The notes below the pieces were generated by a model. The model ran no database searches and was not told the origin of the DNA. It saw only the letters and a list, made by a program, of their open reading frames with translations. A stretch of DNA of 64,000 bases from Candidatus Eiseniibacteriota bacterium (GTDB taxonomy: Bacteria; Eisenbacteria; RBG-16-71-46): contig JBBRLX010000001.1 in NCBI GenBank assembly GCA_038231135.1, positions 10,090 to 74,089 on the forward strand, read 5' to 3'. Below are positions 5,863 through 34,836 of the stretch, one piece after another. How positions within the stretch are numbered: the stretch's first letter is position 1; the number at the start of each line of letters is the position of its first letter. Both the position numbers and the translations under genes were made by a program.

Positions 5863-6640
5863 ATGATCGCGTCAACGCCCCCGCTCATTCCATTCCGCGA
5901 GCGTCCCATGAACAGCAACGCGTTTCGCCACATCGCCGACCGGACCCTGCTTCAGAATCTCGACGCGACAGTTCGAGTTGATTGCGGCACCACGGCCAGG
6001 ATGCTGGGCGAGATCGGCGAGGTCGATAGGCTCCGGCTGTACCTGGGTGAAGGCCACCCGTCGATGTACGCGTACTGCGTGAACGTGCTGAACATGTCGC
6101 CCGACATCGCGTACAAGCGCATCCGCGTCGCTCGCGCGCCCGGCGGTTCCCGGCGCTTTACAAGCTGGTTGCTGAAGGCCGGTTGCATCTCAGTGCCATC
6201 GTGATGCTGGCGCCGTATCTGACGCGAGACAACGCCGACGACTTGGTGGCGGTGGCCACACGCAAGACCAAGATCGAGATCGAACTGCTGATCGCCGAGC
6301 GCTTCCCGCGGTTGGATCTGGCGACGCAGATCAAGCCGATCTCCCCGTGGACCCCGCAACTGGCCCCGGGGCCAGTTGAAGCGACCCCGCCGAGGCCAAA
6401 GCTCACGCCGCTGTCGCCGGAAAGATTTGGGTTGCAGGTCACGATCGACCGGAGCACATACGACACGCTATTGCTTGCGAAAGCGTTGCTCAGTCACGCG
6501 ATGCCATCTGGCAACGTCGTGGAAGTGCTCGACCGGGCGCTGGACGTGCTCACCAGCAGCTCGAGCTGCGCATGTTCGCGGCGACGGACAAGCCCCGCGC
6601 CTGTGGATTGCTCACGGCTTCCGCGTTCCGCAGATCATAA
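5863..6640 (+). pseudogene. Degraded DUF222/HNH-endonuclease-family gene (13E12-repeat type), frameshifted and 3'-truncated
   Basis: Two ORF-track fragments in different frames (5863..6204 and 6183..6755) together align to the DUF222 N-terminal region (YLGEGHPSMYAYCVNVLNMSPDIAYKRIRVAR...RRFPALYKLVAEGRLHLSAIVMLAPYLT...). There is a 1-nt frameshift near 6140 and a second shift near 6555. The HNH nuclease domain is missing, and GC is lower here. Confidence 0.6.
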
Positions 6641-8185
6641 CGGCATGTTCCCGTGCTTCTTCCACGGCAGCGTCTGGCGCTTGTTGCGCAGCATCTCGAG
6701 CGCGGCGATCAGCCGGGGCCGCGTGTCGCGGGGGTCGATGACGTCGTCGAGGTAGCCCAGCTCGGCGGCGGCCCACGGGCTCGCGAACTTGTCGTTGTAC
6801 TCGGCGATTAGCCGCTTGCGCTCGGCCGCCGGGTCCTTGGCCTTCGCGATCTCTTCGCGATAGAGAATATTTACGGCGCCGTCGGCGCCCATCACGGCCA
6901 TCTCGGCGCTCGGCCACGCCACGTTGAAATCGCCGCGGATGTGCTTGCTCGACATGACGTCGTACGCGCCGCCGTAGGCCTTGCGCACGACGACCGTCAG
7001 CTTGGGCACGGTGGCCTCACAGTAGGCGTACAGCAGCTTGGCGCCGTGGCGGATGATGCCGCCCCATTCCTGGCGGGTGCCGGGCAGGAACCCGGGCACG
7101 TCCTCGAACGTCACGAGGGGCACATTGTACGCGTCACAGGTGCGTACGAACCGGGCGCCCTTGACCGACGAGTCGATGTCGAGCACCCCGGCGAGCACAT
7201 TGGGCTGGTTCCCGACGATCCCCACGGGCCGTCCGTTGAGCCGCGCGAAGCCCACGATTAGATTGCCGGCGAAGTGCTCGTGGACCTCGAAGAACTCGCC
7301 GTCATCCACGATGCGCCGCACGACGTCTGTCATATCATAGGGCTTGTCCGAGGACTCGGGCACCACTGTGGCCAGCTCCTGGTCGCGGCGGTCGACGGGA
7401 TCGGTGCAGGCGCGGCGCGGGGGCTCTTCCATGTTATTGGCAGGCAGGAACGAGAGCAGGCGTTTCACAGTGCGCAAGGCATCGGCGTCGTCCTGTGCGG
7501 CGAAATGCGCGACGCCGCTCTTCGAGTTGTGCGTCATCGCGCCGCCGAGATCCTCGAACGAGACTTCTTCGGACGTCACGGCGCGGATCACCTCGGGGCC
7601 GGTGACGAACATGTGGCTCGTGCCCTCGACCATGATCGTGAAGTCGGTGATCGCGGGGGAGTACACGGCGCCGCCCGCGCACGGGCCCATCACGGCTGAG
7701 ATCTGTGGCACCACGCCCGATGCCAGCGTGTTGCGCAGGAAGATATCGGCGTAGGCGCCGAGCGATACCACGCCCTCCTGAATACGCGCGCCGCCGGAGT
7801 CGTTCAGTCCGACGACCGGCGCGCCATTGTCCATCGCGAGATCCATGATATTGCAGATCTTGCGGGCGTTGGCCTCGCTCATCGTGCCGCCGAACACGGT
7901 GAAGTCCTGGGCGAAGCAGTAGACCTGCCGGCCGTCGATCGTGCCCCAGCCGGCGACCACGCCATCCCCGGTGATCTTCTTCTTCTCCATCCCAAAGTCG
8001 GTCGAGCGGTGGGTGACGAACGTGCCCAACTCGACGAACGATCCGGCGTCGAGCAGCAACTCCAGACGCTCGCGGGCGGTGAGAATGCCCTTGGCGTGGA
8101 GTTTGGCGACGCGCTCGGGCCCGCCGCCGGCCAGGGATTCCTCGCGGCGCCGCTGGAGTTCGGCCAGACGCTGCTCTTTGTTCAA
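6635..8185 (-). CDS. pccB: Propionyl-CoA / methylmalonyl-CoA carboxyltransferase beta subunit
   Basis: The 516-aa product has the full carboxyltransferase signatures ([39 protein letters not shown]). Confidence 0.9.
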
Positions 8186-19026: not shown

Positions 19027-19596
19027 ATGCCTCGCAACGACATCACACAGATCCTGCGCGACCTGCGCGGCGGTGAACGCGATGCCGTCGGGGCCCTGCT
19101 GCCGCTCGTCTACGACGAGCTGCGCGTCATGGCGCACAGGCGCCTCTCTCCGGGCGCCCGGGACGTGACTCTCGACACCACCGCCCTGGTCCACGAGGCC
19201 TATCTCCGTCTGTTCGACCGCGACCGGCTCGATTGGAAGGACCGGCGCCATTTCTTCTCGGTCGCCGCCATCGCCATGCGCCAGATCGTGGTGGACCACG
19301 CCCGCCGCCGCAGCACCACCAAGCGCGGCGGCCACCTCAGGCGGGTCGACCTCGACTCGTCGCAGCTCGCCCTCGAGGGCCAGGCCGAAGAAATTCTGGC
19401 CCTCAACGACGCACTTTCGCGTTTAGCCTTGTTGGACGAGCGACTCGCCCGCGTTGTCGAGCTCCGGTTCTTTGCCGGCCTCTCGGTGGAGGAGGTCGCC
19501 CAGGTGATGGAGACCAGCGAGCGCACCGTGAAGCGCGACTGGCGCAAGGCGTGCGCGCTGCTCTATCAGGCGATGACCGCCGAGGAGCCGAGATGA
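19027..19596 (+). CDS. ECF-subfamily sigma-70 factor (kinase-partnered type)
   Basis: The 189-aa product has region 2 (LVHEAYLRLF) and region 4 (LSVEEVAQVMETSERTVKRDW). Confidence 0.85.
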   Translation: MPRNDITQILRDLRGGERDAVGALLPLVYDELRVMAHRRLSPGARDVTLDTTALVHEAYLRLFDRDRLDWKDRRHFFSVAAIAMRQIVVDHARRRSTTKRGGHLRRVDLDSSQLALEGQAEEILALNDALSRLALLDERLARVVELRFFAGLSVEEVAQVMETSERTVKRDWRKACALLYQAMTAEEPR

Positions 19597-22500
19597 ACCT
19601 GATGCTGCACAGTGCCATCGATGTCGAGCGCTGGCATCGCATCGACTCTGTGCTGGACGTGGCGCTGGAGCTGCCGCCGCACGAGGTGGGGGCCTATCTC
19701 GACCGCGCCTGCGCCGGCAGCCCGGTGCTGCGCGCCGAGGTCGAGGAGCTGCTCGAAGCCGACCGGCGCGCGGCCGGGTTCCTGTCGGTGCCGCCGGCGC
19801 TGGTCGCGGATGCCTTCGCGGACGATGGCCGGACGGCCGGAGCCGGCGCCAATCCGACGCCGGATTCCGCGGCCCAGGATGCCGCGCCGCCCGCACGCCT
19901 CGGTCGCTACGGGATTCTCGACGAGCTGGGCCGCGGCGGCATGGGGATCGTCTACCGCGGATTCGACGAGACGCTCGGGCGGGAGGTGGCGATCAAGGTG
20001 TTGCCTGCCGCGGTAGCGGAGGACCCGGAGCGGCTGGGACTGTTCCTGCGCGAGGCCAAGCTGCTGGGCGCCCTCCACCACCCGAACATCGCGGGCATCC
20101 GCGGCATCGAGCAGGCCGCGGGGCGTCGCTATCTGATCCTCGAGAAAATCGATGGCTGGACCCTGGCCGACCGGATGCGCGCGGGCCCGCTGCCGGTCGC
20201 GGCCGGGCTGGATGCCCTGGCCCAGGTCGCGAGCGCGCTCGCCGCCGCCCACGCCTATGGCATCGTGCATCGCGATCTCAAGCCCGGCAACATCATGATC
20301 ACACCCCGCGGGCTCGTGAAGGTGCTCGACTTCGGTCTCGCGATGCACGTGTCGGATCACCATGCCGCCCGGCGCGGCGCAGCCGCCGGGGAGGGAGCGT
20401 CCGGTTCGCCGCCGGCCGGGGCGCGGCGCGGCACACCCGGGTACATGAGTCCCGAGCAGGTCCTGGGCCGGCCCCAGGATGAGCGCGCCGATCTGTTCGC
20501 GTTCGGGGCGGTGCTCTATCACGCCCTCGCCGGCGAGCGGGCGTTCCGCGGAGGATCGGTGTACGCCGTGCTCGACGCGACCCTCCACGCGTCACCCGAC
20601 TTCACGCGGATTCCTGAGGAAACGCCGGCGCCGGTGCGCGAACTGCTCGCGAGGCTCCTGGAGAAGGATCCCGCGCGTCGGCCCGCGGATGCCTCGGAAG
20701 TCGCGGCCATGCTGGCCCGGGGCGCCCGCGGCGAGTCGCCCGTTGCTGCGGCGCGCGATTCGCGGGCGCACGGATGGGCCGGAAACGCAGGAGCGGCGAG
20801 CTCGTGGTCACCTCAGGATTCCCGCGCCGAGGGCTGGCCCGAGCCGGCGACGCCCCTGATCGGACGCGAGCGCGAGATCACGGAGACCCTGGAACTGCTC
20901 GAGCGCGCGCCAATCGTGACACTCACCGGTACGGGCGGCTGCGGCAAGAGCCGCGTCGCCCTCGAGGTCGCGCGTTCGGCGCGTGGCCGCGTGGCGCGGG
21001 ACCGCGCGCCCGGCGGCGGGCCCGCGAGCGCGTCAGGCACCGGTGCGCGTCCCGTGTGGTACGCCGATGTGTCCTCGGCGACGGACCTGGCCGCCATCGC
21101 GGCGGCCATCGCCGCCGCGGCCAGGCTGCGCGACCCCGCCGAGACCGGACTCCCCGACGCCCTGGCCGGGCGGCTCGGCGAGCACGGCGGGCTGCTCGTG
21201 CTCGACAACGTGGACCGGGTGCCCGCCGAGTGCGCGGCGCTGGCGGGCCGGTTGCTCTCCGCCGCGGCGGGACTGCGCATCCTGGCCACCTGCCGCGAGC
21301 GCCTCGGCATCGGGGGCGAGCAGACGTTTGCAATCGCACCGCTCGCAGTGCCCGACGCCGACACGCCCGCGCGCCGCGATGCGGTGCTTGCGTTCGCGTC
21401 CGCCCGGCTGTTCGAAGCGTGTGCCGCGACGCTGCCCGGCGGCTTCGAGATCACCGACACGAACGCCGCGCGCGTCACGGCACTGTGCCGCGACCTGGAC
21501 GGCGTGCCGCTCGCGATCGAGTTGACCGCGGCGCTGCTGCGCCACCAGAGCCTGGAGGCTATCGTCTCCGAGGTGGCGCACGCCGCCGGCGGCCAGGATC
21601 CGCTGCAGGGCGCTCTCGCGCTCGGGTATCGGCGGCTCGCCGCCGACGAGCGCCGGTTCCTCCGCGCGCTCTCGGTGTTCACCGGAGGCTGGAATCTGGA
21701 GGCCGCCGCCGCGGTATGCGAAGTGGATCGTGACGAATTCGTGGCGCTCGACTTCCTGACGCGGCTTATCGACAAGTCGCTCGTCACGGTGCAGTGCGCC
21801 GATCGCATCGAGCCCCGCTACCGGCTGCTCGAGCCGATTCGCCACTTCGCCGCGACCCAGGCCGGGCTCGCGCAAGAATCACACGCTCTGCGGGCGCGCC
21901 ACCTGGACTGGTTCGTGGAGCAGGTCGAGCGCACGTCGCCCGCACTCCAGAGCGGCGCCGATCAGGCGCGTGCCCTCGCCCGGCTCGAAGCCGATCATCC
22001 CAACCTGCTGGCCGCGCTGGCCTCGTGCGAGGACACCGCGGACGGCTCCCGCCAGGCGTTGAGGCTGGCCGGGTCGGTGTGGCTGTTCTGGTACATACGC
22101 GGCCACTTCACACGCGGCCGCGAAGCGCTGGCAAGAGCACTCGCCCTGCCCAGCGCCCCGACGCTGGCGCCGGCGCGCGCCCAGGCCATGTACGCCGCGG
22201 GCGGGCTCGCGCTGTTCCAGGGCGACTACGCGGAAGGGCGGCGCCTGAGCCGTGCGGCGATCGAACTCTATGAGCAGCTCCACGACTCGCTGGGTCTCGC
22301 GCGATCGCTGGTACATCTCGGCCTGTGCGAAAGCGGTGAGCAGCGTTATGCCGAGGCTCGCGACCACACCCGGCGAGCCATCGAGATGTTCCGTGGGCTG
22401 GGCGAGGAGCGGCGCCTGTCGGTGGCGCTCAACAACCTCGGGGTGTTCGAGCGCCAGCAGGGCGACTTCGCCGCGGCGTTTCCCCATCACGAGGAGGCCC

Positions 22501-22946
22501 TCGCATTGCTCGAGCAGGCCGGCGACCAGGATGGCATGCTCGTGACGCGCGTGAATCTCGCCCTCGCCTCCACGCGGCTCTGCCGCGAGGCGATCGCCGG
22601 GCGGCACATCGACGCCGCGCTGGAGCTGGTGCAGGAGCTCAAGGCCCGGCGGTCCGGCGCTGCCGCGCTCGAGGTGGCAGCCGAAGTGCTGGCGAACCGC
22701 GGACTCACCGCCGAGGCCACGCGACTGTTGGGCACCGCGCGGGCGCTGCGAGCCGCGATCGGCCTCGCGCCCGATGCCGGTTGGCGCCGGGTGCTGGACC
22801 CGCTCGCGGTGCGATTGCAGGCGGGATCCGGCTCGGAACGGTTCGAGCGGTGGATCGCGGAAGGAACGGACAGACCGTTCGAGGAGTCCGTTCGGGAGGC
22901 GCGGCGATGTCTTGTGCGCGCGACGATGCTGGAGGGGGGGGCATGA
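19593..22946 (+). CDS. Ser/Thr protein kinase fused to STAND-type NTPase and TPR repeats
   Basis: ATGA overlap with the sigma gene. The N-terminal kinase has VAIK and HRDLKPGNIM, the central region has the P-loop GTGGCGKSRVA, and C-terminal TPR-like repeats follow. Confidence 0.85.
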   Translation: MNLMLHSAIDVERWHRIDSVLDVALELPPHEVGAYLDRACAGSPVLRAEVEELLEADRRAAGFLSVPPALVADAFADDGRTAGAGANPTPDSAAQDAAPPARLGRYGILDELGRGGMGIVYRGFDETLGREVAIKVLPAAVAEDPERLGLFLREAKLLGALHHPNIAGIRGIEQAAGRRYLILEKIDGWTLADRMRAGPLPVAAGLDALAQVASALAAAHAYGIVHRDLKPGNIMITPRGLVKVLDFGLAMHVSDHHAARRGAAAGEGASGSPPAGARRGTPGYMSPEQVLGRPQDERADLFAFGAVLYHALAGERAFRGGSVYAVLDATLHASPDFTRIPEETPAPVRELLARLLEKDPARRPADASEVAAMLARGARGESPVAAARDSRAHGWAGNAGAASSWSPQDSRAEGWPEPATPLIGREREITETLELLERAPIVTLTGTGGCGKSRVALEVARSARGRVARDRAPGGGPASASGTGARPVWYADVSSATDLAAIAAAIAAAARLRDPAETGLPDALAGRLGEHGGLLVLDNVDRVPAECAALAGRLLSAAAGLRILATCRERLGIGGEQTFAIAPLAVPDADTPARRDAVLAFASARLFEACAATLPGGFEITDTNAARVTALCRDLDGVPLAIELTAALLRHQSLEAIVSEVAHAAGGQDPLQGALALGYRRLAADERRFLRALSVFTGGWNLEAAAAVCEVDRDEFVALDFLTRLIDKSLVTVQCADRIEPRYRLLEPIRHFAATQAGLAQESHALRARHLDWFVEQVERTSPALQSGADQARALARLEADHPNLLAALASCEDTADGSRQALRLAGSVWLFWYIRGHFTRGREALARALALPSAPTLAPARAQAMYAAGGLALFQGDYAEGRRLSRAAIELYEQLHDSLGLARSLVHLGLCESGEQRYAEARDHTRRAIEMFRGLGEERRLSVALNNLGVFERQQGDFAAAFPHHEEALALLEQAGDQDGMLVTRVNLALASTRLCREAIAGRHIDAALELVQELKARRSGAAALEVAAEVLANRGLTAEATRLLGTARALRAAIGLAPDAGWRRVLDPLAVRLQAGSGSERFERWIAEGTDRPFEESVREARRCLVRATMLEGGA

Positions 22947-24379
22947 CCACCACGCTGCTTGAGCGCGCCCTGCGCACGATCGACATGGGCCGGGCCGCAT
23001 TCATACTCGTCGCTGCGTCGCTGATCGTCGCCGGCTTCGAGGCGCCCCCGGCGTTCGCACGCGACCTCTGCCCGGGGTGCCAGGCCGAGAACGATACCTC
23101 GTCTTCACCGGGCAACATCGGGAGCCCGCGCTGGCCGGTGGACCGGGCGGTCACGCCGCCCATCGTGTTCGTGGCGAAGGACTCGGAGGTGCATTGTGCG
23201 CTCCCCGCCGGCGATACCTGGATCATCGAGACCGTCGATCCCATCCCCGGCGCAGGCGGGTGCTCGATCACGCTCGACGACGCGCACGATCCCCTGATCG
23301 CCTATCACGACCGGAACGGCATGCTATTCTGGTCGCGTCGGCTGTCCTCCGGCTGGACGAAGGTTCCCATCGACCGCGGCAGCTTCGTTCCGGGCTCGAC
23401 CTCGATTGCCCGGGTGCCCGCGGGGCTCGCGATCGCCTACGTGGATGCCGCCGCCGGAATTCTTCGCTACGCCGAGCAGGACGCCAGCGGGGCATGGCAC
23501 ATCGAGAGCGTGGCGCCGGCCATCGGCGTCGAGGCATACCCGTCGCTCGTGGTCGACGGGAGCCTGCGGGCGATCAGCTACTACGACCCCGCGCGCCACG
23601 ATCTGCGGCTGGCCTTGCGCACGATCGTGGGTGGGTGGACCACGCAGACGATCGACAACTCCGCCGACGTGGGCGGCTACAGCAGCCTGGTCGGGCAGCC
23701 GTCGCAAGGCGTCGTCGGCGTGGCGTATTACGACTTCACGCACGGCGACCTGCGCTACGCCCACGGCAGCCCCGGCGGAGGATTTACCGTCCAGACGGTC
23801 GATGCCGGCGGCGACGTGGGCCGGTTCTGCTCGGCCGTCGCGTTCGCCGGGACCGCCCAGGATCATGTCGGGATCACCTATTACGACCGGGACCACGGCG
23901 ATCTCAAGTACGCGCTCCTGCAGGGCGAAACGTGGTCGCTCCTGACGCTCGACGCGGCGGGGGACGTGGGGAGACATGCGAGTTGTGGCGGAACGCTCGT
24001 TCCCGGAGACACCCTGGGAGTCGCCTACGTCGACAACGGCACGGGTACGCTCAAGTATCTGCTGCGCACGCGTAACGTGACGGCGGTGCCGGCGCCACCC
24101 GTGCCGCACGGCGCCATGCACGTCACCTGGGAGCGGACGAGCGCCGGGGGCCGGATTCGATTCAACCTGGCGTCTGCGGGGCCGGTGCGCGTCACGATCT
24201 ACGATGCGCAGGGTCGCCGGATCGCCGCCCCGTTCACGCACGAGTTGCCGGTGGGTGCCGCGGAGGTCGATTGGAACGGGCGGGATAGCCAGGGTCTGGC
24301 GGTGCGTTCCGGCGTGTGCTTCGTGCGCGTGGCGGCGGGCGGGGAGTCCGGAGTGGCGGCGGCGGTGCTGGTAAGGTAG
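22943..24379 (+). CDS. Secreted beta-propeller-like repeat protein with C-terminal FlgD-Ig/T9SS-like domain
   Basis: ATGA overlap with the kinase. Repeated YYD...GDLRYA blades are followed by a C-terminal ~80-aa domain shared with five other proteins in the window. Confidence 0.7.
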   Translation: MTTTLLERALRTIDMGRAAFILVAASLIVAGFEAPPAFARDLCPGCQAENDTSSSPGNIGSPRWPVDRAVTPPIVFVAKDSEVHCALPAGDTWIIETVDPIPGAGGCSITLDDAHDPLIAYHDRNGMLFWSRRLSSGWTKVPIDRGSFVPGSTSIARVPAGLAIAYVDAAAGILRYAEQDASGAWHIESVAPAIGVEAYPSLVVDGSLRAISYYDPARHDLRLALRTIVGGWTTQTIDNSADVGGYSSLVGQPSQGVVGVAYYDFTHGDLRYAHGSPGGGFTVQTVDAGGDVGRFCSAVAFAGTAQDHVGITYYDRDHGDLKYALLQGETWSLLTLDAAGDVGRHASCGGTLVPGDTLGVAYVDNGTGTLKYLLRTRNVTAVPAPPVPHGAMHVTWERTSAGGRIRFNLASAGPVRVTIYDAQGRRIAAPFTHELPVGAAEVDWNGRDSQGLAVRSGVCFVRVAAGGESGVAAAVLVR

Positions 24380-24506
24380 AACCGCGGAGGGGGACTGGCC
24401 CCGGATCCGGAAGCGTGGTGAAATGCGGTGGTCATCCCGCATGCTCATCGCCGCCCACGATCACAACCGCCACCGTCCCTGCTGCCCTGAACAGGAGTCC
24501 ACGTCG

Positions 24507-26564
24507 ATGAAGCCGTCCCTCCGTTCGATCGCTGCGCTTGCCTTGTGTGCCGGCGCCGTTTGCGCCGCCGCCGCTGCTCCCAAGCCCGCCCACCCGGCCG
24601 CGGGATCCGACGTGCTCGCCGCGCACCGCAATACCGCGGTGAGTCCGGCCGCCGACTTCTTCGAATACTCGAACGGACTGTGGCTGCAGCAGCATCCGAT
24701 TCCCGCCTCCGAGAACTCGTGGGGCATCGGGCGCGAGGTGCAGAACGAGACTTACGCCCGCCTGCTCACGATCAGCCAGTCGGCCGCGGGGGCACACGCC
24801 GCGCCCGGGACCGAAGCCCAGAAGATCGGCGACTTCTGGGCGACCGCCACGGACTCGGTGCTTGGAGAGCATGTGGGCCTGGTACCCCTGCGTTCCGAAC
24901 TGGACCGCATCGACGCGGTGCGCGACGTCGCCGGCATCCTCGATGCCACCTTCGCGCAACTGCCGCTGGGAACCGGAGCGTTCTTCGGGCTGCGCGTGGG
25001 GCAGGACCAGAAGGCCAGCGACGTGATCGCGGTTGGGCTGGGCCAGGGCGGCCTCGGCTTGCCGGACCGCGATTTCTACTTCAAGCCCGATTCGAACTCG
25101 ATGCGCGTCCGCGCCGCCTACCCCGGTCATGTGCAGAAGATGCTCGAGCTGGCGACGCCCGCCGCAGCCGCGCGTCGCGGCGCGGGCACCGCGGTCGTCG
25201 CGTTCGAGACCGCGCTGGCCCGCGTCTCGCGCACCCGTGCCGACCGCCGCGACCCCGAGAAGAACTACAACAAGCTGGGCGTCGGCGACGTCACCGCGAA
25301 GCTCACGCCGTCCGTCGACTGGTCGAGCCGCCTGCCGGCGTTGGGGCTCACGAACGTGACCTACATCATCGTGGGGCAGCCGGAGTTCTACACTGCGCTC
25401 GACAGCCTGCTGCACGCCACGCCGGTCGAGGTGCTCAAGGACTACATGCGCTACCACCTGGTCTCGGCGTACGCCGACTACCTGGGCGGAGCCGTGGAGG
25501 CCGAGGACTTCGCGTTCTACGGCACGATCCTGTCGGGCCAGCAGGTGCAGCGGCCGCGCTGGAAGCGCGCGCTCGACGCCGAGGAGAACGCCCTCGGCAT
25601 GGTGCTCGGCAAGTTGTACGTGAAGGAGTACTTCTCGCCGCAGGCCAAGGAGCGGTACAGCCGGATGGTCGAGGACATTCGAACCGCGTATCGCGATCGC
25701 ATCGGCCGGCTCGACTGGATGAGCGACGCCACCAAGCAGAAGGCGCTCGACAAGCTGGCAAAGGTCGGCAAGAAGGTCGGCTACCCCGACAAGTGGAAGG
25801 ACTATTCGGCGCTCACGATCGGGCGCGAGTCCTGGGCGGCGAACATGATGAGCGCGTCGCGCTGGCAGTTCGCCGACCGCGTCTCGAAGTTCGGCAAACC
25901 GGTGGATCGGACCGAGTGGAACATGACGCCGCAGACCTACAACGCCTACTACAGCCCGTCCAACAACGAGATCGTGCTGCCGGCCGCCGCATTCGCGATT
26001 CCGGGTGTGTCCGACGCCAACGCCGATGACGCGATGACCTACGGATACGCGGCGGCGTCGACGATCGGCCACGAGATCACGCACGGGTTCGACGACCAGG
26101 GCCGGCAGTACGACGCCAGCGGCAACCTGAAGAGTTGGTGGACGCCCGAGGATGAGACCAGGTTCAAGGCCCGCGCCCAGCGCATCATCGACCAGTTCGA
26201 CGCCTACGAGCCGCTCCCCGGGATGCACATCAACGGCCGGGCGTCGACCGGCGAGAACATCGCGGATCTCGGCGGCGTCCTGCTCGGTCTCGACGCGTTC
26301 AAGAAGACCGCGCAGTACAAGGAGGGTGAATCGATCGCCGGGCTGACGCCGACCCAGCGATTCTTCCTGGGCTATGCGCTGAGCTGGATGGACCAGACGC
26401 GCCGGGAGATGCTGGCCCAGCGGCTGCTGTCCGACGTTCACGCGCCGGCCAAGTGGCGCGTGCTGGGGCCGCTCGCGAACGTTCCCGAGTTCTACGCGGC
26501 ATTCGGCGTCAAGCCCGGGGATCCAATGTGGCGGCCGGACAGTACGCGCGTCAGCATCTGGTAG
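24507..26564 (+). CDS. M13-family zinc metalloendopeptidase (neprilysin/PepO-like)
   Basis: The ATG at 24507 follows AGGAG. The product has a signal peptide, the HEITHGFD zinc motif and ENIADLGG. Confidence 0.85.
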   Translation: MKPSLRSIAALALCAGAVCAAAAAPKPAHPAAGSDVLAAHRNTAVSPAADFFEYSNGLWLQQHPIPASENSWGIGREVQNETYARLLTISQSAAGAHAAPGTEAQKIGDFWATATDSVLGEHVGLVPLRSELDRIDAVRDVAGILDATFAQLPLGTGAFFGLRVGQDQKASDVIAVGLGQGGLGLPDRDFYFKPDSNSMRVRAAYPGHVQKMLELATPAAAARRGAGTAVVAFETALARVSRTRADRRDPEKNYNKLGVGDVTAKLTPSVDWSSRLPALGLTNVTYIIVGQPEFYTALDSLLHATPVEVLKDYMRYHLVSAYADYLGGAVEAEDFAFYGTILSGQQVQRPRWKRALDAEENALGMVLGKLYVKEYFSPQAKERYSRMVEDIRTAYRDRIGRLDWMSDATKQKALDKLAKVGKKVGYPDKWKDYSALTIGRESWAANMMSASRWQFADRVSKFGKPVDRTEWNMTPQTYNAYYSPSNNEIVLPAAAFAIPGVSDANADDAMTYGYAAASTIGHEITHGFDDQGRQYDASGNLKSWWTPEDETRFKARAQRIIDQFDAYEPLPGMHINGRASTGENIADLGGVLLGLDAFKKTAQYKEGESIAGLTPTQRFFLGYALSWMDQTRREMLAQRLLSDVHAPAKWRVLGPLANVPEFYAAFGVKPGDPMWRPDSTRVSIW

Positions 26565-26630: not shown

Positions 26631-27731
26631 CTATCGGCCCATCAGGTGTGGCAGCGGATCGGCGAGCAGGTAGGGCCAGATCGTCTCGTGCGGAGCGACG
26701 AACCCGCTGCCCAGCGGCCACCGGCAGCACGCGCGCAGCGATGACCTCGCCTGGAGGAATCGCTGCGCGCGCGGGCGTGGCGGCGCGAAGTCGATGCCGA
26801 GCGCCGCGAGGCATGCGAGCTGCGGGAAGTCGACGCCCGCCGCGTGGGACGCCAGCAGGCTCGACCAGTACCGTGGATTGATTTCGAGCACGGACAGGCT
26901 GCCGTCGCGCTCGTCCACGCGCAGGTCGACGTTCGCGATGCCCGACCAGCCGAGTGCCGCAACCAGGCGGCGAACGAGCTTCGACGCTTCCGGATGATCG
27001 AGCATCTCGAGCTGCGTTGGCGTCGAGAAGCCCCTCGCGGCGCCGATCGACTGTTGAACCGTCTGCGCGAGCACCACTCCATCACGGCACAGCACGCTCG
27101 AGCCCATGTCGCGGCCAGGGACGAACTCCTGGACCACGAATCGATGTGCCATTTCCGGATGGGCTTCGAGGAAGCGCAGGAGGGAGTCGGGATCCGCGAA
27201 CGTACGAATGCCGTAGCCGCCGGTCATGAGCCGCGGCTTGATCAGCACGGGGAAGGCTCCAAGTTGCCGCTGGAATGCCGCGTCGGCCGTGTACAGCAGC
27301 GTCGGCGGATGCGGAATGGCGGCGTCGCGGAGGATCTCGACGAGACGCCACTTGTCGTCGATCGCGAGCGTGCCCTCGAAGGGAGCCAGTGCGACGCGGC
27401 CACGCAGCTCATCGCCTCTGGCCTGGAGGAGCCGCATGCCGGTCTGGCAGACCGGCAGCACCACGTCGGCCCGAACGCGATCGATCAGCGTCCGCACGAC
27501 ATCGAAGCGCGCTTCCGGCTCGCCCGGGGGCATGACGGTGAACGATGCGCAGTACCGCGACCAGTGCACCCGCGCCCTGGCATCGTTCGCGACGACATGG
27601 ACGCGATGCCGCCGATGCCGCCCGAGACAGGTGGCGACGGGGAGTGCGAAGTGACTCTCGCCGTCAGGGATGACGATGACGATCTCGCTGGCATCGGGTC
27701 GCGCGTGCAGCAGTGGCTCGGGCATCAACAT
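26631..27731 (-). CDS. ATP-grasp ligase-family protein
   Basis: ATP-grasp blocks are present (FPVLIKPRLMTGGYGIRTF, VVQEFVPGRDMGSSVL, VLEINPRYWSS). It is the last gene of a same-strand cluster with a papain-like peptidase and a repeat peptide. Confidence 0.75.
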   Translation of the reverse strand: MLMPEPLLHARPDASEIVIVIPDGESHFALPVATCLGRHRRHRVHVVANDARARVHWSRYCASFTVMPPGEPEARFDVVRTLIDRVRADVVLPVCQTGMRLLQARGDELRGRVALAPFEGTLAIDDKWRLVEILRDAAIPHPPTLLYTADAAFQRQLGAFPVLIKPRLMTGGYGIRTFADPDSLLRFLEAHPEMAHRFVVQEFVPGRDMGSSVLCRDGVVLAQTVQQSIGAARGFSTPTQLEMLDHPEASKLVRRLVAALGWSGIANVDLRVDERDGSLSVLEINPRYWSSLLASHAAGVDFPQLACLAALGIDFAPPRPRAQRFLQARSSLRACCRWPLGSGFVAPHETIWPYLLADPLPHLMGR

Positions 27732-27835: not shown

Positions 27836-28402
27836 TCACGGCAGGAGCGGGTCTCGCGGTGCGGCCGCTCTTGCCGCAGCGACCGGCTGGAGCGATGCGA
27901 GGTAGGCTCTTGCATCCTGGACCACGGGTGGCCCGAGCGTTTCGGAGAACAGGTCGAAGGGAACGACCTGGGCGTTTCCGCCCGGGGAATTCGCGCGCAG
28001 GTAGAACGCCTCGACGAACAGGCTGGGCATGATGAGCAGGTTGAGTGTGTAGCCTCCATGCGCCAGCTCCGGCAGCGCGCCCATTTGCTGGATGCGCCTC
28101 CAACCCCATTCCGCCCATTCGCCGTCGAGCATGTTGCGGAACCTGGCGTTCCCATAGTCCCTGGGATTCGTCATCTCACACGATACCGTGCCGATAGGAG
28201 GCGGATAGCTTGCGTAGAAGCGACATCCGGAGGGCGCTTCGGCGGCGGTCCCGAGCGATCGCACCACGGCGTCGAGAGGTATCGCGTACACGGGCACGTG
28301 CACGGCGCTGTCATCCGGTGGCGGCGTTCCGACGAGGTCGAGGAATCCGTCCCGGTAGGTTTGGAGCACTTGCGGCGATGGCGTCACGAACTCGAGCGGC
28401 AT
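27836..28402 (-). CDS. Hypothetical protein, family not recognised
   Basis: The 188-aa product has a balanced composition. Its start lies 1 nt after the stop of the upstream peptidase gene. Confidence 0.5.
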   Translation of the reverse strand: MPLEFVTPSPQVLQTYRDGFLDLVGTPPPDDSAVHVPVYAIPLDAVVRSLGTAAEAPSGCRFYASYPPPIGTVSCEMTNPRDYGNARFRNMLDGEWAEWGWRRIQQMGALPELAHGGYTLNLLIMPSLFVEAFYLRANSPGGNAQVVPFDLFSETLGPPVVQDARAYLASLQPVAAARAAAPRDPLLP

Positions 28403-28403
28403 G

Positions 28404-28997
28404 TCAGCGCTTTCCCGCGGGGGGCTTCACCAGGAACGAGTACGCCCACACGCCCTGTCCATCCTGGTAGCCACCCTCGTCCCCGCTCTGCGAGGCGAAT
28501 ACTTGGTAGGGATGGTGGGAGCGTGACGAGGGGTAAAGCGGGTTGCGGACGAATACGTATGGGGTTCCCCGCGCGGACACCGAGTAACCCACGATTATGA
28601 TGAAGTGACCGCGCCCGTCGTCCCGCCAGCGGATGAGCACACAAATCGGGCGGCCGGCGTCGATCTCGGTGGAGATCACGCTGAACGCCACCGGACCTTT
28701 GACCCACTTGTTGTCGTGCGTCCCCGGCGGCTGAGCCAGAACCTCCATGCGTTCGAGGACCTTGTGCAGGTAGCCGGGCCGGTTACACTTCGAACCCCAG
28801 CCCGCCCCGGCACGCCCGTCCTCGCAGCAGCTCTCCTTGAATTGTTTGCCGACGATCTCGCACTGCGATTCGGGGGCGAGCCCGAAGTGAAGGGCGACTC
28901 CTTGCGACACCGCGGCCCAGCACCATTCCGATGCCTGCTGCTTCGGGAGCCGCAGGTCGAGCGGTTTGGATCTCGGCGTTTCGGGATCGGACTTCAT
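28404..28997 (-). CDS. Papain-fold / C39-like cysteine peptidase
   Basis: The product carries Q...SEWCWAAVSQGVALHFG (Gln oxyanion plus Cys nucleophile) and GHFIIIVGY (His), the catalytic arrangement of C39-like peptidases. Confidence 0.6.
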   Translation of the reverse strand: MKSDPETPRSKPLDLRLPKQQASEWCWAAVSQGVALHFGLAPESQCEIVGKQFKESCCEDGRAGAGWGSKCNRPGYLHKVLERMEVLAQPPGTHDNKWVKGPVAFSVISTEIDAGRPICVLIRWRDDGRGHFIIIVGYSVSARGTPYVFVRNPLYPSSRSHHPYQVFASQSGDEGGYQDGQGVWAYSFLVKPPAGKR

Positions 28998-29018: not shown

Positions 29019-29228
29019 CTACTTCCTGGCGGTCTTCTTCGACGATCGCCGTTTGGGGCCGCCACCGCCAGTGAGGTCGCCGCCGCTACCCTGGTTGCCA
29101 CCGCCGCCTCGCATGGTGGAACTGCGGGCGGACGTCTTCGCGGCCTTCTTGCTAGCCGTCCGCTTCTTCCCGCCGCGGTCGCCGCCGCCGCCGGTCAGGT
29201 CGCCACCACTGCCTTGATTGCCTCCCAT
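29019..29228 (-). CDS. Small Gly/Lys-rich protein with two tandem repeats (candidate modified-peptide substrate)
   Basis: The 69-aa product is MGGNQGSGGDLTGGGGDRGGKKRTASKKAAKTSARSST / MRGGGGNQGSGGDLTGGGGPKRRSSKKTARK. The two units are identical in amino acids over GGNQGSGGDLTGGGG but differ at synonymous positions in DNA, so the unit is conserved at the protein level. Confidence 0.55.
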   Translation of the reverse strand: MGGNQGSGGDLTGGGGDRGGKKRTASKKAAKTSARSSTMRGGGGNQGSGGDLTGGGGPKRRSSKKTARK

Positions 29229-29275: not shown

Positions 29276-31693
29276 CTACGGCCTTTGCCGAGCCGCACTC
29301 AACCGAATCTGATAGTCCGGTTGCCGGGTCAGGCCGGAGGCTCCGGGCCAGCGCGACAGGTCCTCCAGCAGGTCGCGGGGCGCGGCGGCGAGCGCACGGA
29401 TCGCACGGTCGTGCTGCCCGAGCGCATCATAGGTGAGGGCGGCCGACCACATCACATCCCCGAGTGCCGGCGAGGAGCGGAGCGCCTGTTCGACCTCGAC
29501 GTCCGCCCGTCTCGCATCCCCGAGTCGGGCGCAGAGGTAGCCGAGGAAGCCCCGGAAGTACCCTCGATCCGGAGAGCTGGCGACGGCATTCTCGACCATC
29601 GTGAAGCTGTGTTCGTATGCGGCCCGAGACTCCGCGGCGTCGCCCAGGCGCAGATGACAGTCGCCCAGGTAGAGCCAGGTGAGGAACTCGGAGGAATCCC
29701 GTATCGCGGCGCGGCGCAGGAATGGAATCGCATCGCGCTCACGGGATTGGTACATGAGCACTTGTCCAAGCGACAGCAGCGCGCTCGGATCATCACGCTG
29801 CTCGAGCGCCAGGCGGAGCTCGCGTTCGGCATCGGCGAAGCGCCCCACATTCATGAGGGCGTTGGCCAGGACCGCACGCACGCGGGTCACCGTCGGAGCC
29901 AGCGCCACGGCCTTCCGGAGTTCGGGAATGGCGTCGTTGTAGGCGCCCTGGCTGAAGTACCAGCTCCCGAGATCCTGATGGGTGCGATAGTAGGCCGGCT
30001 CCACCTCGACCGCCTTGCGCAACGCCGCGATCGCCAGGTCCAGTTGATTGTCTCGCCGGTAGGCTTCGCCCAGCCGCCGCCACGCATCCGAATTGGTCGA
30101 CGGCAGTTCGGTGGCCCGCTCGTAGCGGACGATCGCCGGGGCGAACCGGCCATCGTTTGCTTCGAGCAATCCGGCGATGCGGTGCACTTCGGGCGTGTCC
30201 TGTGCGCGCAGTTCCGCGCGTCGCACGGATTCCTTGCAGCGCGCGAACCACGTGGTGTCCTGGGTGAGGTAGTACCTGCGCCACTCGGCTTCGGCCTGTC
30301 CCGCCCACGGCAGCGGCGAGCCGGGTTCCGCCGCGGCCGCATGCTTCATGAGCGCCAACGCCTCGTCGAGGCGGTCGTCGTCGCGAAGCAGCGGCAGCGC
30401 TGATTCATAGATCCGCCGAGCCTCCGGGCGGTTCATTCGTAACGTCGTGGGATCGGGCATCAGGTGCAGCGCGGCACTCACCACCGACGCCGCGGCGACA
30501 CTCGCGAATGGCAGCTCATCGGGCGCGTAGTCGCCTTCCCATCGTGTCAGCGTCTGCTGTGATCCGGTTGCGAGCAATTGCACATGCAACCCGTGACTCG
30601 TGGTCGTCGAATCCATCACGACCCGCAACTGATGCGTCGCACCCACCATCGAATGCGTAATGTGGAACGCGCGCTGCCGGGTGCCTCGAAGCGCCTGCAG
30701 GGCGCCACGCAGGTCCAGCGTGGACGACACGGCCAGGTGCACGGTCTCGGGCGGCGCATTCACGCGCCAGTACGCGACCGAGGCGGTGAGGATCACGGCC
30801 CCGAGCGCACTCAACACCAGCACTCGCCGGCGGCGCGGAGGGTCGAGTGCGCGCTGCAGCGCGGGCACGTCGGCGAAGCGCTCGCGCGGATCCATGGCGA
30901 GGCAGCGTTTCACGATTGCATCCCAGCGCCCGCCGGGCGGGCTGCGTCTGGCGGGAGACCCCGCGGTTCCGGATCGGGCGGGCGTCGAACCACTCGCGGC
31001 AACGGTCACGGTCGAGGCCGCTTCGAGCGCCCGGAGTTCCTTTGAGCTCGAGAGCAGCCTTTGAAGGACGACGCCGAACGCATAGATATCCGATGCAACC
31101 GATATCGATGCGCCCGTGAGCAGTTCGGGCGCCATGTAACCTGGCGTGCCCCCCGAACTCCCGTCCTGCCGCGGGCCCTGCGCCAGTCCGAAGTCCGTGA
31201 TCACCGCTCGAGCCGCGCCGTCGGCCGTCGGCGCCAGCAGGATGTTGTTGGGCTTGAGGTCGCCGTGCACGACACGGCAGCGATGCGCCTCGGCCAGCCC
31301 CGCGCAGATCTGCAGGGCGATGCTGCGCGCCTCCTCGTTGCGCATCGGGGCGCGTGCCAGGCGTTGCGCGAGCGTCTCGCCCTCGAGAAACTCCATGGTG
31401 ATGAAGTCCACGTCACCGGCGGGCGTGTGCGCGGAATGAATCTCGAAGATCTTGCACACGTTCGGGTGGCTCACCGAACTGGCGTTGCGGACCTCGGGTG
31501 AGAGCAGTCGCCCCAGCCCGAATCGCGCCACCTTCAGCGCGATGCGGCGGTCGAGCTTTTCGTCGTACGCTTCGTATACGATGCCCATTCCGCCGTGCGC
31601 AAGCTCACGCGTGATCCGGAAACGACCTGCCAGCAGTGCTCCGGGAGCGAAGTGATCGGGAGACTCGCGTGTTCCTGCCGGATCGTCATGCAT
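29276..31693 (-). CDS. Ser/Thr protein kinase with transmembrane segment and C-terminal TPR repeats
   Basis: The ATG at 31693 opens a kinase domain (GGMGIVYEAYD, HGDLKPNNILL, GTPGYMAPE), followed by a long TPR region. Confidence 0.8.
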   Translation of the reverse strand: MHDDPAGTRESPDHFAPGALLAGRFRITRELAHGGMGIVYEAYDEKLDRRIALKVARFGLGRLLSPEVRNASSVSHPNVCKIFEIHSAHTPAGDVDFITMEFLEGETLAQRLARAPMRNEEARSIALQICAGLAEAHRCRVVHGDLKPNNILLAPTADGAARAVITDFGLAQGPRQDGSSGGTPGYMAPELLTGASISVASDIYAFGVVLQRLLSSSKELRALEAASTVTVAASGSTPARSGTAGSPARRSPPGGRWDAIVKRCLAMDPRERFADVPALQRALDPPRRRRVLVLSALGAVILTASVAYWRVNAPPETVHLAVSSTLDLRGALQALRGTRQRAFHITHSMVGATHQLRVVMDSTTTSHGLHVQLLATGSQQTLTRWEGDYAPDELPFASVAAASVVSAALHLMPDPTTLRMNRPEARRIYESALPLLRDDDRLDEALALMKHAAAAEPGSPLPWAGQAEAEWRRYYLTQDTTWFARCKESVRRAELRAQDTPEVHRIAGLLEANDGRFAPAIVRYERATELPSTNSDAWRRLGEAYRRDNQLDLAIAALRKAVEVEPAYYRTHQDLGSWYFSQGAYNDAIPELRKAVALAPTVTRVRAVLANALMNVGRFADAERELRLALEQRDDPSALLSLGQVLMYQSRERDAIPFLRRAAIRDSSEFLTWLYLGDCHLRLGDAAESRAAYEHSFTMVENAVASSPDRGYFRGFLGYLCARLGDARRADVEVEQALRSSPALGDVMWSAALTYDALGQHDRAIRALAAAPRDLLEDLSRWPGASGLTRQPDYQIRLSAARQRP

Positions 31694-32112: not shown

Positions 32113-34470
32113 TCAGCGCATGCGCACCATGCGTCGGGCATCGCTCACCCCGCCCGCCTCGAGCCGGCTGAAGTACAGCCCGGCGGCCGTCGCCGCGCCC
32201 GCATCGTCGCGACCGTCCCAATCGAGCGAGTAGTGACCGGCCTCCTGCACCGTGCCCGCGACCAGCGAGCGCACGAGGCGGCCGCCGATGTCGTAGATGC
32301 GCAGCGAAACGCGGCCACGCTGCGCCAGGTCGTAGGCGAGCGCCGTGCGCGCCTGGAACGGGTTCGGGCGCGCCGCGCGCAGCATCGCATGCAGAGGCAC
32401 GCCGCCGCCGTCGACGCCGGCGACATGATTCGAATCGTAGATCGCAGTCGCGAACTCGGGGTGATCGACGAACGGGTTGCGATTGTGCTGGTACTCGTAG
32501 ATCGCGCCGTTGCGCACGCGCTCTTTCCAGCTCACGGCGTCGGCGATGCTCCACAGCAAGTACTGGTCGGCCGCCCACGGCAGCATCTGCGACTTGCTGG
32601 TCGATGCGCCGCCCGGCCACGAGGCGTCCTCGTTGAAGTACCGCGTCGAAACATAGAACTGGCTGCGCGACAGGTCGCCCTTGTAGCCGTCGATCGGCTC
32701 GAAGCAGGTGCCGCTGTATCCGGGTGACACGCAGCCGCCGAGCCGGGTGCCGTTCAGCGACGTCCAGGTGGCCGAGCCGACCTTGCCGTACGGGTAGTTG
32801 CCGCGCTCGCTGTTCACCTTGGAATCCGTCGGATAGATGATCCACAAGTCCGAGTACATCGGCAGAATGCTGCCACCGAACCACGATTGCGGAAACGAGT
32901 GCTCGCGGTTGTACGCGATGCCTTCGCTGCCGCCCGAGCCCAGCGGGCCGAACGCGAACTCGTACGGCGGTGTGCCGCCCGGGACGTCGGAGTAGACGTC
33001 CCACACCTTGCCGTCCGGACGCTTGTCGGTGTTCTGGAACGCAGTCGCGGTAAAGCTGTAGGTGAGGGAGGTGTGGGCCTTGATGATGTTGTGAAGCGCG
33101 ACGCGCAGCGCCGAACCGCGCAGGCCGATCGCGGAGTCGTAGTAGCCCGCGGGGATCGACACATCGACATAGTGGAAGACGAAGGTCGCATGGTCGGTGA
33201 AGTGCGCCATGAGATCCCCGACGCCATTCACCGTGAGCGTGCGGTCGCCCGCGGGGATGGACCGCACCGTGATCGTCACCTCCGACATCGTAACGGAGTC
33301 GCGGACCGCGTTCACCGTGGTGAGTCCATCGACACTGTAGTTGCCCGGGAGCTGCGAGGTCGAGGGGTCGACCGCGACGCTGAAGAACACCTGCAGCGTC
33401 GAATCGCTCGCTTCGTAGACGGAGGTGATGACCGGCGTCCCCGAGCCGCCACCGCCCGTGCCGGTGACGGCATAATTGAGGACCGGCGACTGCACGGTCA
33501 CGGAGTCATCGGCCGCGATGACCTGGTAATAGACGACCGTGCCACCCGTCTGTGCCGGGATGGGCGACGAGGTCTGCCAGAAGTCCCCGCTCGCGGGGGC
33601 CATGCTGATGATGTTCGGGAGCGACGAGTTACTCGTGCCCCACGCCAGCGAGACGGCGTCGAGCGCGCGCGCGGTGTCGACCACACTGGCCTGGACCGTG
33701 ACGCCGAGCGTATCGAGCGGCACCGACGGGGACGTCGAGAGGTTCGAGATCACCGGGCCCGCGGGGCCGCCGCCCGAACCGATCAAGGTGCCGGTCACCG
33801 CGACATTGTCGATCGAGGCCTTGGGACGTGCCCCCGAGGAACCAGACGGACCGGTGCCGTTGTAGTCGTAGAAGCGGATGCGCGCGGTCGGGCAATTCGT
33901 GAACGCCGCCGGCAGCGTTATGAGCGAGACGTTCTGCGAGAACGCGACATTGTTCGTAAAGTTGACCACCGAGGCGGCGGACAGTTCGGTGAACGTCGTG
34001 CCGTCGATGCTCGTGTAAACCCGCATCGAACCGTTGCGATTGCCGGTGGTGTTGAACACGGTCGCGAAATCGAAGCTCAGCGTGCCCGCGGTGACGCCGG
34101 TGAAGTCGAACAACAGGTCGATGGCGTCTGCGTTGATGTTGTCGGTGCCGTTCGTGGACAGCAGCTGGATGTTGCCGGAGCCCTTCTGCACGCCACCCGA
34201 AGTCGACGTAACGAACGTCGCCGTGCTCACCGTGATCTTGACGCCGTCGGGGATCGTTCCCGTGCCGTTGGTGCCGACGGATGCCCAGTACTGGGCGCCG
34301 ACACCGGAGGCGAAATTATTCGTCCAGTTCGCGACGTCGTTGAAGTTCTCGAGGTAGTTGCCACTCGCCATCGGGAACGGAGTGGCGGCGGAGGCCGGTG
34401 AAGCGGCTGTCCCGACGAGCAACACGAGCAGCAACAACGGAGCGGGGAAGGACACGGGGAGCTTGCGCAA
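32113..34470 (-). CDS. Secreted endonuclease-I-family nuclease with C-terminal FlgD-Ig/T9SS-like domain
   Basis: A TTG start at 34470 follows GAAAGG and gives the signal peptide MRKLPVSFPAPLLLLVLLVGTAASPASA. The Endonuclease_1 block is YNREHSFPQSWFG...YPTDSKVNSERGNYPYG. The ORF-track starts upstream at 34755 and 34596 have no signal peptide. Confidence 0.7.
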   Translation of the reverse strand: MRKLPVSFPAPLLLLVLLVGTAASPASAATPFPMASGNYLENFNDVANWTNNFASGVGAQYWASVGTNGTGTIPDGVKITVSTATFVTSTSGGVQKGSGNIQLLSTNGTDNINADAIDLLFDFTGVTAGTLSFDFATVFNTTGNRNGSMRVYTSIDGTTFTELSAASVVNFTNNVAFSQNVSLITLPAAFTNCPTARIRFYDYNGTGPSGSSGARPKASIDNVAVTGTLIGSGGGPAGPVISNLSTSPSVPLDTLGVTVQASVVDTARALDAVSLAWGTSNSSLPNIISMAPASGDFWQTSSPIPAQTGGTVVYYQVIAADDSVTVQSPVLNYAVTGTGGGGSGTPVITSVYEASDSTLQVFFSVAVDPSTSQLPGNYSVDGLTTVNAVRDSVTMSEVTITVRSIPAGDRTLTVNGVGDLMAHFTDHATFVFHYVDVSIPAGYYDSAIGLRGSALRVALHNIIKAHTSLTYSFTATAFQNTDKRPDGKVWDVYSDVPGGTPPYEFAFGPLGSGGSEGIAYNREHSFPQSWFGGSILPMYSDLWIIYPTDSKVNSERGNYPYGKVGSATWTSLNGTRLGGCVSPGYSGTCFEPIDGYKGDLSRSQFYVSTRYFNEDASWPGGASTSKSQMLPWAADQYLLWSIADAVSWKERVRNGAIYEYQHNRNPFVDHPEFATAIYDSNHVAGVDGGGVPLHAMLRAARPNPFQARTALAYDLAQRGRVSLRIYDIGGRLVRSLVAGTVQEAGHYSLDWDGRDDAGAATAAGLYFSRLEAGGVSDARRMVRMR

Positions 34471-34836
34471 GGGATGGAACCTTTCGGTCTTGGGCTCCGC
34501 GCCGCGGACCACCGGGCATTTACGGATCGGTGGCTGCGGGAGGAGACGCTTCGGCTGGTGCAAGGGACGGGCCCAGAAGGGGTACCGGATCCCCATAAGA
34601 GTAACCCGGAATGGACCGCCCGCAAATGGTTTACAGGCACCCGCGAGCCTACAACCCCACCTCACTTTCACCGCATGACGCGGACCCGGAATCCGCTCGC
34701 GCTCAGGACCCGCTCCTTGCCTGGCCGGGAATCTCCGCAGCACGACTCCCACCACTTGGACCTTGACCCCTCGCCCAGTTCGGAGCCACTATTGCGAAAG
34801 TCTTGACTTCAGGGAATCACCCTGGGAACCCCTTAC

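Follow-up and report, generated by a model that had tools for sequence, protein, structure and literature searches.

A two-unit glycine- and lysine-rich peptide gene within a kinase-protease cassette of Eisenbacteria and other bacterial phyla

Does a 69-codon minus-strand ORF that encodes the same 15-residue block twice represent a real gene, and if so, what kind of product does it make? The ORF lies in a 64,000-nucleotide stretch (hereafter the window) of Candidatus Eiseniibacteriota bacterium (GenBank assembly GCA_038231135.1, contig JBBRLX010000001.1, positions 10,090 to 74,089). A sequence-only reading of the window had argued that the two blocks, identical in protein but divergent in DNA, are under purifying selection and that the frame is real. 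It had further proposed that the second Met-initiated unit might be translated independently or might be a second core of a multi-core precursor, and had named a KGG/YciG stress-protein repeat as an alternative. The observation itself is confirmed. Its interpretation is partly supported: the frame is real and the idea of a second core fits what relatives show, whereas independent translation from the second Met and the KGG/YciG alternative are not supported.

The ORF translates to MGGNQGSGGDLTGGGGDRGGKKRTASKKAAKTSARSSTMRGGGGNQGSGGDLTGGGGPKRRSSKKTARK*, and the block GGNQGSGGDLTGGGG occurs twice. The two DNA copies differ at 9 of 45 nucleotides, all at third codon positions and all synonymous, and none of 200,000 simulated sets of 9 random substitutions left the peptide unchanged. 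pS is 0.72 (dS about 2.4, saturated) and dN is 0. The basic tails of the two units are also related (KKRTASKKAAK versus KRRSSKKTARK). The same pattern recurs in independent two-unit relatives, here designated by the numbers of the loci retrieved in this analysis (L001 and onward): 9 synonymous and 0 nonsynonymous codon differences in L001, 4 and 0 in L090, 5 and 1 in L118, and 7 and 1 in L085, for a total of 34 synonymous against 2 nonsynonymous across the five genomes. The gene was called as a 69-aa product in L081 and L082, two Logan assemblies of the same organism, where the peptide DNA is identical to that of the window. Both copies in the window use several A/T-ending codons (unit 1: GGA, AAT, CAA, AGT, GGT; unit 2: GGT, ACT) in a 68% GC genome, which may reflect selection against long identical or G-rich DNA repeats (recombination or slippage).

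Features of the cassette and of neighbouring genes, in window coordinates
Position	Strand	Feature
29019..29228	-	Gene for the 69-aa Gly/Lys-rich precursor-like mini-protein (pI 11.9, net charge about +12), stop codon included
29181-29225	-	First copy of the 15-aa block (aa 2-16)
29187..29225	-	Unit 1, 13-mer GGNQGSGGDLTGG (aa 2-14), directly after the initiator Met and ending in the site L-T-G-G (from L11)
29115..29186	-	Basic spacer GGDRGGKKRTASKKAAKTSARSST (aa 15-38)
29103..29114	-	Upstream bracket site M-R-G-G (aa 39-42)
29058-29102	-	Second copy of the 15-aa block (aa 43-57)
29064..29102	-	Unit 2, 13-mer GGNQGSGGDLTGG (aa 43-55), identical in protein to unit 1 and ending in L-T-G-G (from L52)
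29022..29063	-	C-terminal basic tail GGPKRRSSKKTARK (aa 56-69)
29276..31693	-	Hanks-type Ser/Thr kinase, one transmembrane helix and a C-terminal TPR region; ORF runs up to 31957, likely start Met89 at 31693
29276-31588	-	Automatic 770-aa kinase call (L081 3410-5722)
28404..28997	-	Clan-CA papain-like cysteine protease, 197 aa, standalone, no signal peptide
27836..28402	-	Uncharacterised 188-aa acidic protein (DUF188), pI 4.8; start overlaps the protease stop
26631..27731	-	ATP-grasp ligase (366-398 aa), about 100 nt downstream of the cassette
19027-19596	+	Sigma70_ECF sigma factor (PF07638, E 5.7e-55)
19233-22946	+	Large kinase with AAA_16 and TPR domains
32113-34755	-	Endonuclease_1 protein with a FlgD_ig-like C-terminal domain
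22781-24379	+	ORF with a FlgD_ig-like C-terminal domain
24423-26564	+	M13-family metallopeptidase (E 1.8e-107) with a signal-like N-terminus

Direct homology searches with the peptide found no relatives: a word-indexed search of 5.8 billion proteins gave no hit at E<=0.01, and phmmer against 1.84 billion representatives gave none at E<=0.001. Pfam, NCBIfam and PADLOC likewise gave no hit for the peptide or for DUF188. The Gly/Lys-rich composition and small size are in favour of a KGG/YciG-type general stress protein unrelated to its neighbours. Neither the peptide (hmmscan against Pfam-A) nor any of 25 family members hit PF10685 at E<=1, and the neighbours are strictly conserved rather than unrelated, so this reading is rejected as highly improbable.

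Relatives were instead found by synteny through the protease, which has a small family (33 hits). Using it as an anchor, we retrieved 80 genome loci and 80 metagenome loci, plus contexts for individual hits. Of 170 protease loci, 53 carry a small Gly/Lys-rich ORF with a D-[L/M]-x-GGG motif directly upstream of the protease. In every such locus with enough flanking sequence, a homologue of the TPR kinase (40-60% identity) lies immediately upstream (29 of 29), and in every such locus with enough downstream sequence, a homologue of the 188-aa protein lies immediately downstream (35 of 35). Carriers include Candidatus Eisenbacteria (closest, 57% protease identity), many Bryobacterales, Terriglobia and other Acidobacteriota, and a Limnocylindrales MAG of the Chloroflexota. 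The reading frame is therefore conserved at orthologous positions; loss of the frame in relatives, or a KGG hit, had been named beforehand as the outcome that would count against a real gene. The four genes are tightly packed, with spacers of 47 nt (kinase to peptide), 21 nt (peptide to protease) and a stop/start overlap (protease to DUF188), and in L083 the peptide stop overlaps the protease start. No sigma-70-like promoter or terminator-like site was found on the minus strand inside the cassette, and Rfam gave no match.

The kinase matches Pfam Pkinase (5.8e-33) and many TPR families and contains HGD, DFG and APE motifs; its PADLOC hits cover only the generic kinase domain. The automatic call starts inside the Gly-rich ATP-binding loop (MGIVYEAY...) and so truncates it. 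Homologue alignments begin near residue 93-103 of the 893-aa ORF, so the true start is probably Met89. A single transmembrane helix after the kinase domain is conserved in all 41 homologues examined, and the TPR part should therefore be extracytoplasmic, as described for PknS (PMC13147305). A second transmembrane helix, which would place the TPR region in the cytoplasm, was considered, but the second hydrophobic peak is not conserved among homologues.

The protease hits Pfam C70 above its cutoff and C39_2 just below, with no hit in NCBIfam or PADLOC. Gln20 (the oxyanion residue), Cys26 and His131 are invariant in the family, and Asn152 is present. The closest structural neighbour is staphopain, and the neighbours include three double-glycine peptidases. 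DUF188 is predicted to form a tandem helix-plus-sheet arrangement with two similar halves; a Foldseek comparison of this protein with the PDB found no significant match. PDB sequence searches with the protease and DUF188 profiles found nothing meaningful. A catalytic role for DUF188 (H35, C60) was considered, but these residues are not kept in the wider family, where Trp replaces Cys.

The adjacent ATP-grasp gene raises the possibility of a graspetide-type RiPP precursor, in which the ligase would cross-link Asp with the Thr/Ser side chains of each GGNQGSGGDLTGG core and the protease would remove the flanks. The gene is on the same strand, each unit contains D, S and T, and multi-core graspetide precursors exist. 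However, tblastn with the window ligase hit only L081 and L082, which are the same genome, among 163 loci, and no homologue was found in the 161 others. Close relatives have an SDR, RibD_C or unannotated genes at that position. The ligase matches Pfam ATP-grasp_3 (2e-14), but NCBIfam gave only generic CPSase-like, PRK06849, Ddl, RimK and PylC hits, all far below their cutoffs, and no peptide-maturase model. The Asp is also conserved in all lineages that lack the ligase. We conclude that the ATP-grasp is a genome-specific neighbour rather than part of the conserved cassette, and that a RiPP reading relying on it, being unsupported by conservation, is very unlikely.

The anatomy of the family is defined by [L/M]-x-G-G sites. 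Examples include L083 (MGGSTSHTGDLKGGGGPKKGKK...), L166 (MGGSTGHTGDLKGGGKGG...), L164 (...DDLRGGGGTLPTGGDLGGGGGARRK...), L168 (...AALKGGGGDESVGGDLRGGGKKPAK...KKASLKGGGGDEAVGGDLRGGGKRPGK...), L118 (MKGGGGNPGVGSDMGGGGGPGQKKK...SAMKGGGGNPGTGSDMGGGGGRRK...) and an acidobacterial form (MATKKK...NLSGGSGDxGSGSDLKGGGGPKGGGK...KKKK), with one to three units per gene and Lys/Arg-rich segments flanking the units in all relatives. In 36 distinct peptides, 74 of 95 Leu/Met residues sit in [L/M]-x-G-G, against a shuffled mean of 5.5 and maximum of 16, and successive sites are exactly 13 residues apart in 34 of 44 intervals. Aligned on the site, the unit is G/S-G-x6-D-[L/M]-x-G-G, with position 8 being Gly or Ser in the window's clade; the two window copies follow the template G-G-x5-G-D-[L/M]-x-G-G, and each is bracketed by [L/M]-x-G-G sites. 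Entropy is near zero at D, L and GG and reaches 2.1-3.6 bits between genomes at positions 3-8. These variable positions are nevertheless identical at 4-6 of 6 in the eight genuine within-genome unit pairs, against 1.18 of 6 between genomes (permutation p<1e-5). The variable core is therefore a lineage-specific feature that must match in all copies, as expected of a specificity determinant tracking a partner. The peptide of L002 (6693-6959) ends with a third, incomplete unit (…KKSAGGSNTSTTDLQ*) that stops right after D-L-x and lacks the Gly-Gly.

The second Met of the window peptide is the hydrophobic residue of one such site (MRGG). Leu occupies this position in L001 (SALKGG), L168 (ASLKGG) and L090 (ANLSGG), and no purine-rich Shine-Dalgarno sequence precedes it, so it is probably not a start codon.

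These data suggest, tentatively and at somewhat less than even confidence, that the disordered, polycationic peptide is the substrate of the co-encoded protease, which would cut after the [L/M]-x-G-G sites. The sites have a hydrophobic residue at P4 and Gly-Gly at P2-P1, as in double-glycine leaders and the LxGG sites of deubiquitinases. Cleavage after MRGG and LTGG, together with removal of the initiator Met before Gly (the established specificity of methionine aminopeptidase), would yield two identical 13-mers (GGNQGSGGDLTGG, M 1075.45 Da) plus Lys/Arg-rich fragments. The 15-aa identity block starts exactly at the predicted N-terminus of the unit and ends two residues past the predicted cut, and single-unit relatives start M|GGSTSHTGDLKGG|GG. 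Gly-rich short repeats (GGGNGQT, GGSDAGHT, GGGGTGGT, GGANPKGGSGMGG) are also naturally fused in frame to the N-terminus of the protease domain in L015 (6731-7537), L020 (6623-7498; protein P0031, four copies of the 13-mer GGANPKGGSGMGG), L027 (6764-7531) and L053 (6787-7542), and several arrays start with an LxGG site (PLKGG, GLVGG). The site statistics, unit boundaries, fusions, translational coupling and fold of the enzyme all fit this reading. In this view the acidic DUF188 probably binds or restrains the protease or the peptide, and the kinase probably couples the cassette to an envelope signal. While the gene, the selection on it, the synteny, the site periodicity and the protease fold and catalytic residues are established by the analysis, cleavage, the identity of the products, export and the roles of the kinase and DUF188 are inferred. 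An AF2 model of P0031, made to see whether a repeat docks in the active site, left the repeats disordered (pLDDT<50) and gave no docking evidence. Canonical C39 substrates also need hydrophobic residues at -7 and -12 in a leader helix (PMC6363468), which these peptides lack, and staphopain is not a Gly-Gly-specific enzyme. Moreover, the peptide, protease and DUF188 have no signal peptide or TM and look cytoplasmic, no transporter cluster is conserved in 38 kinase-linked loci, and the TPR region is extracytoplasmic, so that a direct link between the products and the sensor domain is unexplained.

The main rival, which we consider unlikely but not negligible, is that the peptide is not cut and acts as an intact disordered polycation, for example an H1-like nucleic-acid or polyanion binder, or a kinase substrate or regulator. 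The paired motifs would then be docking sites, for instance for the two halves of DUF188 or for the protease active site as a pseudo-substrate inhibitor. Consistent with this, the peptide is strongly basic, the tails in L002, L004 and L006 are AKKAP-type, H1-like repeats, two members hit Pfam HC2 (histone H1-like nucleoprotein), DUF188 is acidic with two similar halves, and the fixed 13-residue spacing would suit bivalent binding. The Lys-rich tails could be the functional part, with the Gly-rich unit serving as a linker or binding motif. However, the tails conserve only composition, whereas the Gly-rich unit and its sites are the conserved part. Strict coupling to a protease with intact catalytic residues and the natural repeat-protease fusions are more simply explained by a substrate relationship, and the Ser/Thr positions in the unit are not conserved, which argues against a fixed phospho-acceptor.

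Literature searches found no description of this cassette or of its motif strings. With double-glycine leader peptides cut by C39 peptidase domains (ComC/ComA, PCAT1, LahT150), the cassette shares a clan-CA peptidase with the catalytic residues and a site motif with Gly-Gly at -2/-1 and a hydrophobic residue at -4. It differs in that the protease is standalone rather than fused to or encoded with an ABC exporter, and the peptide lacks the amphipathic leader helix with hydrophobic -7 and -12 positions that LahT150 requires (PMC6363468), the corresponding unit positions being Gly, Ser, Asn or variable polar residues. The sites are also repeated inside one peptide, the flanks are polycationic, and a receptor kinase and an unknown protein are obligate partners. 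Multi-copy precursors, such as yeast alpha-factor MFalpha1 with tandem 13-mers and basic spacers, or multi-core cyanobactin and graspetide precursors, similarly have tandem identical short units separated by basic spacers, kept identical by selection while the DNA diverges, with an implied dedicated processing protease; here there is no secretory signal, no modification enzyme conserved with the peptide, and no known receptor. Staphopain-staphostatin operons, which pair a protease with its inhibitor, offer a further comparison. Relative to LxGG processing of ubiquitin-like proteins by papain-like deubiquitinases and viral PLpro, there is no beta-grasp domain, there are no E1 or E2 genes, and the unit is only 13 residues long.

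The kinase shares the PknS-like architecture of ECF43 sigma/Hanks kinase pairs (PknT-EcfP of Vibrio, PknS-EcfK of Xanthomonas; PMC13147305), with a cytoplasmic kinase domain, one TM and an extracytoplasmic TPR region. No sigma gene adjoins it in the window; the nearest Sigma70_ECF gene, about 10 kb away, is followed directly by a different kinase and looks like a separate ECF-sigma/Hanks-kinase pair. In 17 relatives of a second subfamily, however, a Sigma70_ECF sigma carrying an LQPTE motif sits directly upstream of the kinase, like the ECF43/Hanks pairs in the literature. The peptides of this subfamily (L029, L031, L042, L043, L050, L061, L062 and L070; ORFs between kinase and protease at about 6460-7000 in locus coordinates) are longer, with a conserved N-terminal beta-hairpin-like segment (MAIEIRITVG.../MTIEITIRPG...), Gly-rich repeats with periods of about 10-12 residues, and hydrophobic VLVIGPIV segments. 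The papers searched on ECF43/Hanks pairs do not mention a peptide-protease-DUF module.

As in the receptor-plus-propeptide cassettes of peptide signalling (RRNPP systems such as rap-phr, nprR-nprX and plcR-papR; comCDE), the peptide gene lies immediately downstream of a TPR-containing sensor gene, and its variable core is constant within a genome and diverse between genomes, like pherotypes. In contrast, the sensor is a membrane Ser/Thr kinase with an external TPR region rather than a cytoplasmic TPR regulator, the peptide has no hydrophobic segment or export signal, and no exporter is linked. A more speculative and, in our estimate, unlikely reading is that the cassette is an undescribed peptide-signalling system of Gram-negative soil and sediment phyla. 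A cytoplasmic LxGG-specific protease would excise one to three copies of a hypervariable 13-mer (GG-x5-GD[L/M]xGG) from a polycationic precursor, and the 13-mer would reach the periplasm and be read by the TPR ectodomain of the adjacent kinase, in some lineages feeding an ECF43-type sigma factor; positions 3-8 would then carry pherotype-like specificity. If the units are excised, the cassette would be a standalone double-glycine/LxGG-type processing system tied to Ser/Thr kinase signalling, with lineage-specific 13-mers reminiscent of pheromone pherotypes. It would also give a concrete handle on what TPR-type Hanks kinases, and in relatives the ECF43 pairs, control in Acidobacteriota and their relatives, as the inputs and outputs of these kinases are largely unknown. 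The family escapes sequence searches, yet is strictly linked to a receptor kinase, a protease and an unknown protein in at least three phyla. It further shows that tandem units kept identical in protein while their DNA is saturated with synonymous change can flag real small genes in high-GC genomes full of spurious ORFs.

More distant members of the protease family lack the kinase and peptide and are instead fused to other N-terminal domains: a ~140-aa domain in uncultured proteobacterial and Gemmataceae MAGs, a ~110-aa domain in Streptomyces, and long repeat domains in archaea (L022, L045, L051 and L059; L041, L046, L049 and other Streptomyces loci; and the archaeal L039 and L040). Within the window, the M13-family metallopeptidase gene is convergent with the ATP-grasp gene and is not conserved with the cassette. 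The FlgD_ig-like C-terminal domain shared by the Endonuclease_1 protein and a second ORF is possibly a sorting or secretion tag typical of this lineage.
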